A stretch of DNA of 64,000 bases from a bacterium (GCA_043805085.1 JAZDII010000086.1:2807-66806); one strand, 5' to 3'; shown: positions 34,961-57,553, counted from the first letter of the stretch. Numbers and translations are program-made. Notes: generated by a model not told the origin, from the letters alone.

Positions 34961-34974
34961 AAACCTTCTCTCGT

Positions 34975-35001
34975 GTCATCCCCGCGAAAGCGGGAATCCA
35001 G
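34975..35001. repeat. Palindromic repeat, subtype A (gtcatccccgcgaaagcgggaatccag)
   Basis: A hairpin forms between cccgc and gcggg with a gaaa loop. It lies in the 53-nt gap between the ilvC stop and the leuA start. Related copies are at 52341, 60864 and 60913. Confidence 0.7.
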
Positions 35002-52395: not shown

Positions 52396-53010
52396 TCAAC
52401 TTATTTTGTGAATTTGAAACAATTCCCTCATTGCTTGGCTGCGATGACTAATTTGTCCCTTAATCTCCGCCGCCAGTTCGCCAAAGGTTTGGTGATAACC
52501 TTCCGGCACAAAAACAGGATCATAGCCAAATCCGCCGCTCCCTTCGGGAGCGTTGGCAATCGCCCCGCGGCAAACACCTTCCGCCCTTGCCAAAACTTTT
52601 CCTCTTTCCGCCAAAACCAAAACGCAGCGATATTGCGCGCCGCGCTTTTCCCGAGAAACGTTTTTCAATTCGCTCAATAATTTTTCTGTGTTTCGCGCAT
52701 CGTCCGCAGGCTCGCCCGCGTAACGCGCGGAAAAAACGCCCGGCTTTCCTCCCAGAAAATCCACTTCCAATCCCGAATCGTCCGCCAATACCCAGCCTTC
52801 ATAAAAAGCCGAAACCTCTAATGCTTTCTTTCGAGCGTTTCCTTCAAACGTCGCGCCGTCTTCCGCGACTTCCGGAATCTGCGGGAAGTCGGCCAACGTC
52901 TCCACGCGCCAACCCTCGCCCAGCATCGCCGCCAATTCCCGCGCCTTGCCGCGATTGCGCGTCGCCACTAAAAGCCGTCGCCCCGCTGCTTGTCCCTTGG
53001 CATCGTCCAT
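52396..53010 (-). CDS. rdgB: dITP/XTP pyrophosphatase (RdgB/HAM1 family)
   Basis: The sequence shows [24 protein letters not shown] and [12 protein letters not shown] chose the ATG at 53010; the track's start at 53127 overlaps leuS. Confidence 0.85.
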
Positions 53011-53038
53011 GCCCTGTGCTACCGTGATTTCTTTTACG

Positions 53039-55498
53039 ATGCAAACTCGCAAACAATATCCTTTCTCGCAATTTGAACCCAAGTGGCAAGCCCACTGGGC
53101 CGAGCACAACTGCTTTCGCGCCGCCAATCCGGGCGAGGCTGGTTCGGAAAAGCCGAAGTATTACGTGCTCGACATGTTCCCTTATCCTTCCGGCGCGGGT
53201 CTGCACGTTGGCCATTTGGAAGGATACACCGCCACGGACATCGTCGCCCGCTACAAGCGCATGCGCGGCTTCAACGTGCTTCACCCGATGGGCTGGGACG
53301 CCTTCGGCCTGCCCGCCGAGCAGCACGCTATCGCCACGGGTACGCATCCGCGCGAGACGACGCGCCGCAACATCGCCACGTTCAAACGCCAAATTCAGGC
53401 GATGGGGTTTTCTTACGATTGGCAACGCGAAGTGGACACAACCGACCCGCGTTATTACCGATGGACGCAATGGATTTTTCTCCAGCTCTATAAAAAAGGA
53501 CTCGCTTACGTGGCCGAAGCGCCGGTGTGGTATTGTCCCGCGCTCGGCACGGTGTTGGCCAACGAAGAAGTGCTGGCCACGCCCGAAGGCCCACGCTCCG
53601 AGCGCGGCAATCATCCCGTCGAACGCCGCTCGTTGCGCCAATGGATGCTGCGCATCACGGCCTACGCCGAGCGGTTGTTGAAGGATTTGGAGTTGCTGAA
53701 CTGGCCGGAATCGCTCAAGGAAATGCAGCGCAACTGGATTGGCCGCAGCGAAGGCGCGGAAGCGGTTTTTCCGCTTGTCGGCCATGAGCAAGCCATCACG
53801 GTTTTCACGACGCGCCCTGACACGCTTTTCGGCGCGACGTATATGGTGCTTTCGCCCGAGCATCCACTTGTTTCTCAAATCACCACGCCCGACCAGCGCG
53901 CCGAGGTGGAAGCTTATCGCAAAACCGTCGCGGTAAAATCCGATCTCGAACGCACGGATCTCGCCAAAGACAAAACCGGCGTCTTCACGGGCGCGTATGC
54001 CATCAATCCCGTCAATCAACAAAAAATCCCCGTCTGGATTGCCGATTACGTGCTGATGGGCTACGGCACGGGTTGCATCATGGCCGTGCCCGCGCACGAC
54101 ACGCGCGACCATGAGTTCGCTCTGAAGTTCAGCCTGCCGATCATCGAAGTCGTCGCCCGCCCCGCCGACGCGACGGAAGAATGTTTCACAGGCGACGGCG
54201 TTTCCATCAATTCCGGTTTTCTCAACGGCCTGCCGACGCCTGAAGCCAAGCACAAGATCACGGACTGGCTCGAAGCCCAAAAATACGGCAAACGCGCGGT
54301 GCAATATAAATTGCGCGACTGGCTTTTCTCGCGCCAACGCTACTGGGGCGAGCCGTTTCCGATTGTCTGGAAAGGCAAAGAACACGCGCCGCTTGCTGAA
54401 ACAGAGCTGCCACTTCTTCTCCCCGAAATGTCCGATTACAAACCCAGCCCGACAGGCGACGCGCCGCTCGCCAAAGCAACGGACTGGGTCAACCTGCCGG
54501 GCGGCTTGAAGCGCGAGATTAACACGATGCCGCAATGGGCGGGCTCTTGTTGGTATTATCTGCGCTATTGCGACGTTGAGAACGACAAAAAACTCATCGG
54601 CGAAAAAGTGGAGCGTTACTGGATGTCGCCCAACGGCATTGACCTTTACGTCGGCGGCGCGGAACACGCCGTCCTGCACCTGCTCTACGCCCGTTTCTGG
54701 CACAAGGTTCTTTACGACATCGGCGCGGTCTCAACGCCAGAGCCGTTCCACAAGCTCGTCAATCAAGGCATCATCCTCGGCGAAGACAGCCGCAAGATGT
54801 CTAAATCCATCGGCAATGTCGTCAACCCCGACGACATGCTCCAAGAGTACGGCGCGGACGCCCTGCGCCTTTTTGAAATGTTCATGGGGCCGCTGGAACA
54901 ATCCAAACCGTGGAACATGAAAGGCGTTGAAGGCGTCTATCGTTTCCTCGGCAGGACGTGGCGTTTGGTGATGCAAGAAAACGAACAAGGCGAATGCTCG
55001 CTCAATCCGCAAGCGCAAGACGTCGCTCCTTCCGCCGCGATTCAAAAAGCCCTGCATCACGCCATCAAAGAAGTGACCGAAGACCTCGAAGGTATGCGCT
55101 TCAACACGGCCATCGCAGAACTGATGACGTTGGTCAACGAACTCACCAAAGCGGAACAAAAACCGCGCAGTGTTTTGAATACGCTTTGCTTATTGCTATC
55201 GCCCTTCGCGCCGCATATCGCCGAGGAACTCTGGTCGCAACTCGGCCACGAAAAAAGCCTCTGCTACGAACCATGGCCGACTTACGACCCCGCGTTACTC
55301 GTCGAAGACCAAGTAGAAATTGCTATCCAAGTGAATGGAAAATTGCGCGACCGTCTCAACGTCGCCTCCAACCTCGAAGCCAAAGACTACGAACCCCTCA
55401 TCCGCAATCACGCTTCTTTGGAAAAATGGACCGGCGGCAAAACCATCCGCAAAATCATCGCCGTGCCGCAGAAATTAGTGAATGTGGTGATAGGCTAA
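53039..55498 (+). CDS. leuS: Leucyl-tRNA synthetase
   Basis: The HIGH-type motif (HVGHLEGY) and the KMSKS motif are present, along with the editing domain. I chose the ATG at 53039. Confidence 0.95.
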
Positions 55499-55591
55499 GC
55501 TCCAATACCTTTGAGCTGTTGCCCATTTTCTACTCCGACCCCTTCGGGGGAAAATGGAAGACCCCGATAAGTCGGGGTAACAAATGCAACA

Positions 55592-55662
55592 CGTAGTGCA
55601 TTGTCATTGCGAGAAGACCCGACTTTGTCGGCGCGACGAAGCAATCTCGGGCGCAAGGGAGG
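55592..55662. repeat. Left inverted repeat flanking the GIY-YIG gene
   Basis: cgtagtgcattgtcattgcgag...cgacgaagcaatctcgggcgcaagggagg is the imperfect reverse complement of 55957-56016. Confidence 0.75.
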
Positions 55663-55670
55663 TAAAATAT

Positions 55671-55955
55671 TCAAAACAATTCACTCAAATCTTGCCATTT
55701 TCGGTTCATACTTTTGATAAGAGTTTCTTTCTTCTTTCGAGAACCTCCTTTGATTTGTTTTTCTCTCGCAATTGCCATCCACACATCATGAAATGTTTCC
55801 ACATAAACAAGCCGATCCACGCAATAACTTTTGGTGAATCCTTCGTTTTTTTTGCTCTTATGCTCCCACACTCTTCGCCTTAAATCGTTTGTCATGCCAG
55901 TATAAATGACCGTGCGGCATGTATTGCACATCATGTAAACGTGGTAATTTTTCAT
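55671..55955 (-). CDS. GIY-YIG (URI) nuclease domain protein
   Basis: HVYMMCNTCRTVIYTGMTNDLRRRVWEHK...YVETF...AIAREKQIKGGSRKKK matches GIY-(x10)-YTG, the Arg, and the E..IK motifs of stand-alone GIY-YIG proteins. Confidence 0.85.
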   Translation of the reverse strand: MKNYHVYMMCNTCRTVIYTGMTNDLRRRVWEHKSKKNEGFTKSYCVDRLVYVETFHDVWMAIAREKQIKGGSRKKKETLIKSMNRKWQDLSELF

Positions 55956-55956
55956 A

Positions 55957-56016
55957 CCTCCCCTGCGCCCGAGATTGCTTCGTCACTTCGTTCCTCGCAA
56001 TGACAAATGCGCTACG
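55957..56016. repeat. Right inverted repeat flanking the GIY-YIG gene
   Basis: Its reverse complement reads cgtagcgcatttgtcattgcgaggaacgaagtgacgaagcaatctcgggcgcaggggagg, which pairs with 55592-55662. Confidence 0.75.
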
Positions 56017-57553
56017 CCCACAACTGACGATCCAGCGTGCGGTATTGGACGGCCTCGCTGACGTGTTCGACGGTGATGTTTGCTGCGTTCGCCAGATCGG
56101 CAATGGTGCGGGAGACTTTGAGAATGCGGTCATAGGCGCGCGCGCTTAGGTTCAAATCGGACATAGCGTGCTTCAGCAATTCCTTGCTCTCGTCATCAAG
56201 CGCCGCGTATGCCTTGATGTCCTTCGCCGCCATTTGCGCGTTGCACCAGATGCGGTTTCTTTCTTTGAATCGCTCCAGTTGAATTTGCCGCGCGGCAATG
56301 ATGCGCTGTCGAATAGCAGAAGACGGTTCCGCGTCGGCGGGATGAACCAACTCTTCATGCCGCAGGGCGGTGACTTCCAGATGAATGTCAATGCGGTCGA
56401 GCAAGGGTCCTGAAATTCTGTTCAAGTAACGCTGCACCGCCGCCGCACTGACTTTGCCGCGCCTCGCGTCTTGCGCGCCGCCGGTGGGCGTCGGATTCAT
56501 GGCGGAGACGAACATGAAACGCGCGGGAAAAGTGAGCGTTCCGGACGCGCGCGAGATGGTGACGTGCCCGTCCTCTAACGGCTGGCGAAGCGTCTCCAGC
56601 GCGGATCGCTTGAACTCCGGCAGCTCATCCAAAAACAACACGCCGTGATGCGCAAGGCTCACTTCGCCCGGCGTCAGTTGCGCCGAGCCGCCGATGAGAC
56701 CGATATCGGAAATCGTGTGATGCGGCGCGCGAAAAGGCCGTTCCTTGACCAAAGCCATTCCGGGCGGCAGCAAACCGACGACGCTGTGAATCTTCGTCGT
56801 CTCCAGCGATTCCTCCAGCGTCATCGGCGGCATGATGGACGGAATGCGCTTGGCCAACATGCTTTTGCCCGAGCCGGGCGGGCCGATCATGAGCAAGTTG
56901 TGTCCGCCCGCGACGGCAATCTCAATGGCGCGCTTGACGCTCTCCTGCCCTTTCACATCTGAAAAATCCAATTCCGCCGCGTCCGACGCAAAACTGTGAT
57001 CCGCGCCGTTCTTTTGCTGATACGGCTGTAACTCGGTTCTGCCCTCCAAAAAATCCGTCACCCCGCGCAAATGATCCACCGCATAGATGTTCAGATTTTG
57101 CACGACCGACGCTTCCTGCGCGTTCTCGGCGGGAACGATGATGCCTTTCTTGCCCATTTGACGCGCCACGAGAGCCATCGGCAGTGTGCCGCGCACGGGC
57201 CGCACCGAGCCTTTCAACGCCAGCTCGCCCACGACAATGTAATCCCGCGCATGATCCTGCTTGATCTGGCCGGACGCGGCCAGCAACCCCAGCGCAATGG
57301 GCAAATCAAAAAGCGGCCCTTCCTTGCGCACGTTGGCGGGGGCTAGGTTAATCGTCACGCGGCCATCGGGATTTTTGAATCCGCTGTTTTCCAACGCCGC
57401 CTTCACGCGGTCGCGCGATTCCTTCACCGCAGCGTCCGGCAGCCCCACCACCACCGCGCCTTTGTCGGAAAATCCGCGCCCTACATAAACCTCCACTTCC
57501 ACAGGAAAAGCTCTGATGCCCATGACCGAAGCGGAATGAAGCGTGGCCAGCAC
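56012..57553 (-). CDS. comM: YifB/ComM family Mg-chelatase-like AAA+ ATPase
   Basis: An N-terminal Lon-protease-like domain is followed by Walker A (GPPGSGKSMLA), FLDELPEF, and the C-terminal SARAYDRILKVSRTIADL. Confidence 0.9.
   Translation of the reverse strand: MLATLHSASVMGIRAFPVEVEVYVGRGFSDKGAVVVGLPDAAVKESRDRVKAALENSGFKNPDGRVTINLAPANVRKEGPLFDLPIALGLLAASGQIKQDHARDYIVVGELALKGSVRPVRGTLPMALVARQMGKKGIIVPAENAQEASVVQNLNIYAVDHLRGVTDFLEGRTELQPYQQKNGADHSFASDAAELDFSDVKGQESVKRAIEIAVAGGHNLLMIGPPGSGKSMLAKRIPSIMPPMTLEESLETTKIHSVVGLLPPGMALVKERPFRAPHHTISDIGLIGGSAQLTPGEVSLAHHGVLFLDELPEFKRSALETLRQPLEDGHVTISRASGTLTFPARFMFVSAMNPTPTGGAQDARRGKVSAAAVQRYLNRISGPLLDRIDIHLEVTALRHEELVHPADAEPSSAIRQRIIAARQIQLERFKERNRIWCNAQMAAKDIKAYAALDDESKELLKHAMSDLNLSARAYDRILKVSRTIADLANAANITVEHVSEAVQYRTLDRQLWA

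Follow-up and report, generated by a model that had tools for sequence, protein, structure and literature searches.

The window analysed here, a stretch of 64,000 nucleotides from a small verrucomicrobial genome, carries a compact cassette between leuS and comM that consists of one short gene and two inverted arms (Table 1). The gene is intact, and its product matches the Pfam GIY-YIG domain over residues 4 to 76 with an E value of 4e-13; the Pfam search found this single domain and no other, and an NCBIfam search with the protein gave no match. The catalytic residues Y7, Y18, R28, H32, E65 and N84 are all present, and R28, H32 and N84 are also invariant in an alignment of 15 homologues. The sole relative of solved structure that could be recognized by sequence is the UPF0213 protein 1ZG2, which is distant (E 2e-6). 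Upstream of the nuclease gene, at a distance of 56 nt, lies comM, which is encoded on the same strand. An earlier note on this DNA had described a 94-residue GIY-YIG ORF enclosed by imperfect inverted repeats, an interior richer in A/T than the flanks, and a right repeat whose outer tip carries the TAG stop codon of comM. All three descriptions agree with our results: the arms of 73 and 62 nt enclose the ORF, the GC content of the ORF is 0.379 as compared with 0.57 in the arms, 0.572 in leuS and 0.598 in comM, and the comM stop codon is located inside the right arm, within the repeat-homologous sequence cgtagcgcattt at its outer end. A comparison of C-termini with 24 relatives showed that the length of comM and its native C-terminus (...RTLDRQLWA) are unaltered, and nucleotide homology with the comM genes of relatives begins at 56016/17.

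Table 1. Features of the cassette and its surroundings in the window
Feature	Position	Strand	Remarks
leuS	52946-55498	+	
Degenerate partner half-repeat beside left arm	55523-55591		two hairpins, the second at 55561-55578
Terminator-like stem and T-run	55578-55561	-	downstream of the nuclease gene, beyond the left arm
Left arm, downstream of gene	55592-55664	+	SRM-like hairpin unit, subfamily T1; 73 nt
13-nt head of inverted repeats	55601-55613 / 55994-56006		100% complementary
Head of left arm	55603-55613		GTCATTGCGAG
30-nt core of inverted repeats	55635-55664 / 55955-55984		97% complementary
GCAATC in tail of left arm	55641-55646		within CGAAGCAATCTC
ssn-like nuclease gene	55671-55955	-	intact 94-codon ORF; Pfam PF01541 GIY-YIG
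Right arm, upstream of gene	55955-56016	-	subfamily T1; 62 nt
GCAATC in tail of right arm	55978-55973	-	minus-strand reading
Head of right arm	56004-55994	-	minus-strand reading
comM (YifB/ComM Mg-chelatase-like AAA+ ATPase)	56012-57553	-	Pfam Mg_chelatase E 1e-89
TAG stop codon of comM	56012-56014	-	inside the right arm

Each arm has the form GTC, stem strand ATTGC, internal loop, variable inner hairpin, GCAAT and C. In the left arm, the head is followed by an inner GC hairpin and then by the tail, and in the single-stranded DNA (ssDNA) fold ATTGC pairs with GCAAT around the inner stem. The hairpins of the two arms are thermodynamically weak (z -1.4 and -0.25), and the ssDNA fold of the segment from 55523 to 55664 has a z of -5.4. 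Among 55 units, the outer stem was part of the minimum-energy fold in 41, and 16 of the 55 surpassed 95% of the shuffles of their interior; the mean z against interior shuffles was -0.98. No Rfam match was found at E values up to 1. The pentamer cgtag at the outer ends of the arms had been considered a possible target duplication. This idea has to be abandoned because the same bases, as part of gcgtagtgc(a/g)ttt, stand before the head in many gene-less copies at other sites of the genome; cgtag, therefore, belongs to the conserved 5' extension of the repeat itself.

The repeat to which the arms belong is dispersed throughout the genome. The 11-nt head GTCATTGCGAG has 63 exact copies in the 1.67-Mb assembly, and its degenerate form GTCATYGCGAG has 71, as compared with one copy of a reversed-pattern control. 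Sixty-five of the 71 heads (92%) lie outside long ORFs, under which approximately 88% of the genome falls, and 68 of the 71 do not adjoin any nuclease gene. The order within the repeat unit is the head, a variable stretch that is usually a short GC-rich hairpin, and then (C)GAAGCAATC(T/C)C. Subfamilies were distinguished as follows: T1 has the tail ...gcaatctcgggcgcaggggagg, T2 a tail with the long hairpin 'ccccattttc...gaaaatgggg', T3 the tail ...gcaacctccctgcgggcaaaaggga, and T4 the head GTCATCGCGAG together with the tail ...gtggcgatctttgttgc. Gene-less T1 copies number about 26. There are also 21 head-to-head doublets, nearly all of which combine a T1 unit with a T2-type unit across an ACGT-centred spacer of about 20 nt. 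The degenerate half-repeat next to the left arm resembles the tail hairpin of the T2 half of these doublets, and the repeat structure at the locus thus reaches farther to the left than first described. The outer stem shows covariation: heads with ATCGC are accompanied by GCGAT tails in seven of seven cases in this genome and in three of three elsewhere, and no ATTGC head with a GCGAT tail occurs in the genome.

Two further arrangements were observed among the dispersed copies. Many hairpin doublets are enclosed by an outer inverted-repeat pair, GGTAGTGTCCTAAttt ... aaaTTAGGACACTACC, other copies of which enclose unrelated short inserts or a T4/T5 doublet (in this genome, G000, at C8:1029-1240, C19:8157-8370, C29:12830-12940, C98:6649-6830 and about 15 more sites). 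This pair suggests either a second, nested family of miniature elements or a preferred landing site. Two T2 half-repeats (G000:C23:9580-9660 and C66:2900-2980) contain the same insertion of about 75 nt between tail and head, a further nested repeat.

Besides UvrC, the genome encodes three small GIY-YIG proteins, and the count and flank comparison that the earlier note had called for linked each of them to repeats. The window copy is bracketed by inward-pointing T1/T1 arms, the copy on contig C78 by inward-pointing T3/T3 arms and the copy on contig C104 by inward-pointing T4/T4 arms; thus, all three genes are bracketed, each by its own repeat subfamily. The three proteins are mutually 59-60% identical, form a single cluster on the family tree (SH-aLRT 89), and all keep the GIY Tyr, the YIG Tyr, the Arg, the His, the Glu and the Asn. 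Decayed nuclease genes were not found beside gene-less repeats in this genome. The neighbours of the other two copies are recD2 and a homoserine dehydrogenase gene (C78, L027) and, for the third copy, a porin gene. A functional link of the cassette to comM was considered and rejected, the neighbourhood not being conserved among the three copies. Two of the three cassettes do adjoin recombination helicase genes (comM in the window and recD2 on C78), which is probably due to chance since the third adjoins the porin gene.

The association of the nuclease with hairpins extends far beyond this genome. Database searches yielded 2750 homologues of the window protein at E<=1e-5, the best of which, at 57-67% identity, belong to Cyanobacteria, Chloroflexota, KSB1, Ignavibacteria, Deferribacteres and other groups. 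We surveyed the flanks of 80 homologous loci in species-representative genomes of at least 16 phyla for heads with no more than two mismatches that point inward and lie within 220 nt. Such a head lay on the upstream side of the gene in 54 loci and on the downstream side in 59; 44 loci had one on each side. The density of heads near the gene was approximately nine times that in the far flanks of these loci. The sequence GCAAT[CT] followed 7-50 nt past the head in 74 of the 90 nearest arms. The stems between head and tail differ by compensatory changes (ccgc-gaa-gcgg, cccc-tgc-gggg, gtgc-gaa-gcac), and the minimal unit, which consists of the head, cgaagcgaa and GCAATC, contains d(GCGAAGC), a motif known to form a mini-hairpin of great stability in DNA.

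A second head class, GTCATTCTGAG, flanks 20 loci. When the two classes, GCGAG and CTGAG, were mapped onto the protein tree, a single change accounted for their distribution, whereas shuffled assignments required 17.5 changes on average and none of 500 shuffles was as low; the tree was built from only 95 columns and many of its forks are unresolved. At least 16 phyla have the GCGAG class and at least 8 have the CTGAG class, and these host phyla overlap (Chloroflexota, for instance, contributes 8 and 7 loci, respectively). Given the one-change split and the overlap in host phyla, the type of hairpin tracks the lineage of the nuclease and not that of the host. The nuclease-hairpin pairing is ancient and crosses phyla.

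A protein of the same size and fold has been characterized in Neisseria. SsnA of N. meningitidis is a single-domain GIY-YIG protein of 94 amino acids, classified as CDD cd10448 (Chenal et al. 2025, Nat Commun 16:2388, PMC11893778). It binds the NTS hairpin CGTCATTCCCGCGMAVGCGGGAATCYRG solely as ssDNA and solely in one orientation, and its cut falls a few nucleotides upstream; cutting depends most on the three nucleotides that precede the NTS palindrome, and binding depends most on the C that follows it (PMC11893778). Mutation of the catalytic residues Y6, Y17 and E64 showed that they are required for cleavage (PMC11893778). In many phyla, related hairpins (SRM) lie on either side of genes for Ssn homologues, some of which cut their own hairpin; the characterized enzymes act on ssDNA only and ignore RNA (PMC11893778). 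In Neisseria, the enzyme reduces transformation by NTS-bearing DNA (PMC11893778). The authors likened the NTS-ssnA-NTS arrangement to an insertion sequence and to REP/RAYT, and in their survey 19% of repeat-rich genomes were without the gene (PMC11893778).

The window protein has a homologue in N. gonorrhoeae, which was detected by tblastn with an E value of 3e-9 in a 7.3-Gb plasmid collection that includes mislabelled gonococcal chromosomes; this value, which depends on the database, is near, and not clearly beyond, the published criterion of E<1e-10 (PMC11893778). In a pairwise comparison, the two proteins are 38% identical over 85 aa without gaps (E 5e-18), and the window residues Y7, Y18 and E65 stand opposite Y6, Y17 and E64 of SsnA. 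Identity to the characterized Ssn enzymes is only 36-41%. The gonococcal gene is surrounded by five exact NTS repeats and by a sixth copy, which only the degenerate SRM pattern recognizes. In the arms of the window, GTC still precedes the stem and C still follows it, and the stem begins with ATT and ends with AAT. The published SRM pattern, HGTCWYN(0-2)YYVSBRHN(0-5)WNVSBRGN(0-2)RNCYNB, a search tool and not a definition of the family, matched none of the T1-T4 arms and none of the 80 homologous loci. Membership in the Ssn family, therefore, rests on protein homology together with the shared GTC...C frame. The pattern did find 42 sites in this genome, as compared with 6-20 in shuffled sequences. 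About 36 of the 42 read TGTCATTCCCGCGAAAGCGGGAATCCAG, a sequence identical to the Neisseria NTS consensus except for the first base; these NTS-like copies flank none of the three nuclease genes (an example lies at 34974-35001 of the window, equal to G000:C86:37780).

On this comparative evidence, we consider it probable that the cassette belongs to the Ssn family and that its product would be a hairpin-guided ssDNA nuclease that nicks a few nucleotides 5' of the hairpins of its own arms. What speaks against this placement is the failure of the SRM pattern to match the arms, the low identity to the characterized enzymes, the weakness of the individual hairpins, the different orientation of the arms in the gonococcus, and the relative G030, which has 76 heads and no Ssn-type gene. 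The earlier note had supposed that nuclease and repeats belong together, and this is borne out: all three paralogues are bracketed, the pairing recurs in at least 16 phyla, and homologous Ssn enzymes specifically bind and cut such hairpins (PMC11893778). The likeness to the Neisseria system covers a single-domain GIY-YIG protein of about 94 residues, the Tyr/Tyr/Glu residues, inverted and dispersed intergenic hairpins with the GTC...C frame, a wide and patchy distribution across phyla, and the existence of repeat-rich genomes without the gene. The hairpins themselves differ in that the stem here is ATTGC/GCAAT, with an internal loop (GAG / CGAA) and a variable second hairpin, whereas that of Neisseria is an 8-bp ATTCCCGC stem; in addition, three diverged nuclease-hairpin pairs reside here in one genome of 1.7 Mb. 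At the gonococcal gene the heads adjoin the gene, whereas here the tails do, and since the nearest gonococcal hairpins are thus oppositely oriented, the geometry of the arms is not a constant of the family. The core finding, a small GIY-YIG nuclease with flanking and dispersed hairpins, is already published. What our analysis adds is a hairpin class missed by the SRM pattern, three coexisting pairs, about 36 near-canonical NTS copies that have no partner, and a clean co-variation of nuclease and hairpin across phyla.

How the cassette may work can be sketched from its layout and from the Neisseria precedent. Read-through from comM would be the likeliest mode of transcription because no promoter-like site was found between comM and the nuclease gene, the right arm supplies a GGAGG, and a terminator-like hairpin follows the left arm. 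Translation would start from the ribosome-binding site in the right arm, whose tail 'ggggagg' places the Shine-Dalgarno sequence GGAGG 5 nt before the ATG, and transcription would end at the terminator-like stem. By homology, the enzyme is expected to bind single-stranded T1 hairpins and to nick just 5' of the head. Each strand of the cassette has one arm in the cleavable orientation, at the 5' end, which would place one nick on each strand, outside the cassette. The gene-less T1 copies might be acted upon whenever they become single-stranded, as in replication, repair or incoming transforming DNA, and such cutting would trim these copies or limit recombination at them. The cassette and the gene-less copies may spread, or may once have spread, by a nuclease-dependent route. 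Restriction of incoming single strands, as in Neisseria, maintenance of the repeats and self-spread are candidate roles.

One alternative is that the cassette is an autonomous mobile element, with the GIY-YIG protein acting as its transposase and with gene-less hairpins and doublets as its non-autonomous derivatives, analogous to REP/RAYT or to IS/MITE systems. This reading overlaps with the Ssn explanation and does not exclude it; we regard it as possible, with the odds somewhat against it. The numbers of heads are specific to lineages, with 71 in this genome, 16 in G001, 76 in G030 and 0-6 in 27 other relatives. The cassette is missing at the 3' end of comM in all of the relatives searched, the nuclease gene is AT-rich, its homologues in other phyla are as much as 57-67% identical, and only 2 of 69 pairs of loci whose genes have a nucleotide identity of 75% or more share flanking DNA. 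The gene-less copies also share arm sequence with the cassettes beyond the hairpin proper, and an IS-like architecture has been remarked upon (PMC11893778). As with REP/REPIN sequences and their RAYT genes ('REPtrons'), a gene lies between inverted dispersed hairpins, each paralogue has its own subfamily, the repeats are intergenic and the gene-less copies are mostly inverted doublets. The enzyme here is GIY-YIG only, however, and not a Y1 HUH tyrosine transposase (IS200/IS605-like), and where REPs have the conserved 5' tetranucleotide GTAG, the repeats here have GTC(A). The recognition of ssDNA hairpins, the cleavage at an offset from the hairpin, the tiny size and the gene-less derivatives recall IS200/IS605 as well as IS/MITE pairs with terminal inverted repeats. 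In IS200/IS605, both ends are cut on one strand, whereas here the arms are inverted and each strand has only one arm in the cleavable orientation, and simple single-strand excision of that style, therefore, does not follow. There is no HUH or DDE enzyme here and no target-site duplication, cgtag being repeat sequence; mobility is putative.

Other observations also count against mobility. No near-identical copies of the gene were found, and recent transposition of the gene is not indicated, as the three copies are 59-60% identical; pseudogene remnants were not found in the genome either. No pair of filled and empty sites was obtained. Among 30 relatives, which belong to other genera, have a comM of about 70% nucleotide identity and do not conserve leuS-comM synteny, no empty site was found at comM because the nearest comM protein anywhere is only 73% identical. 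A candidate pair in Anabaena, two genomes with 90% identical cassettes, turned out to represent a rearrangement junction and not a clean empty site. At G032:C40:13926-16126 (L048 / L134), a homologous cassette and its repeats lie exactly where two flanks meet, and in 19 congeners these flanks are 0.2-2.4 Mb apart where contigs are of megabase size (e.g. G042, G037, G034, G038) or fall on separate contigs. The cassette thus coincides with a break in synteny, an observation that speaks in favour of mobility. Finally, G030, a member of the same order and another family, has repeats without the gene. Many of its 76 heads form tails-in doublets of about 100 bp (e.g. G030:C1:73855-73955), yet no Ssn-type gene was found in its 95%-complete assembly, and its candidate head-to-head intervals of 380-450 bp held no nuclease gene. 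In its most specific form, the mobile reading proposes an autonomous GIY-YIG element of about 0.4 kb, three orthogonal lineages of which seeded some 70 gene-less hairpins in a RAYT/REPIN-like manner, and holds the TGCGAG-class hairpin to be the main site of a large cross-phylum Ssn clade. We offer this proposal only tentatively and would sooner expect it to fail than to hold; if true, it would imply a transposition chemistry not yet described for bacteria. A literature search for GIY-YIG together with REP, REPIN, RAYT or MITE, or for the head sequence, returned nothing relevant.

The earlier note had also suggested a homing-type element. In such a scenario, the repeats spread by other means and offer a selfish nuclease gene a safe harbour in many copies; the gene targets them and comes to lie between the two halves of its target. 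The repeat-rich G030 without the gene would fit, as would the roughly 36 canonical NTS-like copies without a partner gene and the gene-less tails-in T4/T5 doublets, which would look like a target that the C104 copy has not occupied. The corresponding gene-less tails-in T1/T1 doublet was not seen in the genome, however. I-TevI and the Seg enzymes join a nuclease to a separate DNA-binding domain and occur in introns or free-standing in phages, whereas the protein here is a single domain of 94 residues without a DNA-binding module, is chromosomal and intergenic, and has no intron, intein or target-gene context. Moreover, the characterized relatives cut ssDNA only (PMC11893778), which would not give the double-strand break that homing requires, and we, therefore, disfavour homing and consider it quite improbable. 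Still less probable, and strongly disfavoured, is the view that the repeats are generic intergenic hairpins (terminators, mRNA stabilizers or REP-like sequences) unrelated to the nuclease, through coincidence or a role at the level of RNA. It would account for the intergenic position of 92% of the repeats, for the 68 of 71 heads that are away from nuclease genes and for the terminator-like character of one hairpin next to an arm. It is difficult to reconcile with the bracketing of all three paralogues by a different subfamily each, with the pairing in 44-59 of 80 loci across phyla at an approximately ninefold local enrichment, and with a hairpin class that follows the nuclease clade. The absence of an Rfam match and the very stable d(GCGAAGC) DNA mini-hairpin in the minimal unit also argue against it, and the published Ssn enzymes ignore RNA (PMC11893778).

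The preferred reading, an Ssn-type nuclease paired with its own hairpins, has some practical bearing. To our knowledge, no nucleases other than the Ssn enzymes cut ssDNA site-specifically, and every nuclease-hairpin pair could become a tool. The locus adds the hairpin class GTC-ATTGC-GAG...CGAA-GCAAT-C, with a second, variable inner hairpin, which escapes the published search pattern and yet, across at least 16 phyla, lies beside most of the closest homologues. With its three diverged pairs, this genome provides natural material for testing how a protein of 94 residues encodes specificity. The locus also bears on, and does not settle, whether such cassettes move and create families of repeats.

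Small GIY-YIG genes are not all of this type. The UPF0213 proteins (E. coli YhbQ type; PDB 1ZG2, B. halodurans BH0048) also have a small stand-alone GIY-YIG fold; they belong to a different subfamily, are far more distant from the window protein than the Ssn homologues are, and have no reported flanking hairpin repeats. The only small GIY-YIG gene of G030 is likewise of a different, tRNA-adjacent type (L116, G030:C53:9139-9348). It lies right downstream of a tRNA gene without hairpin repeats, as do two genes in G001 (L115 and L117, G001:C13).
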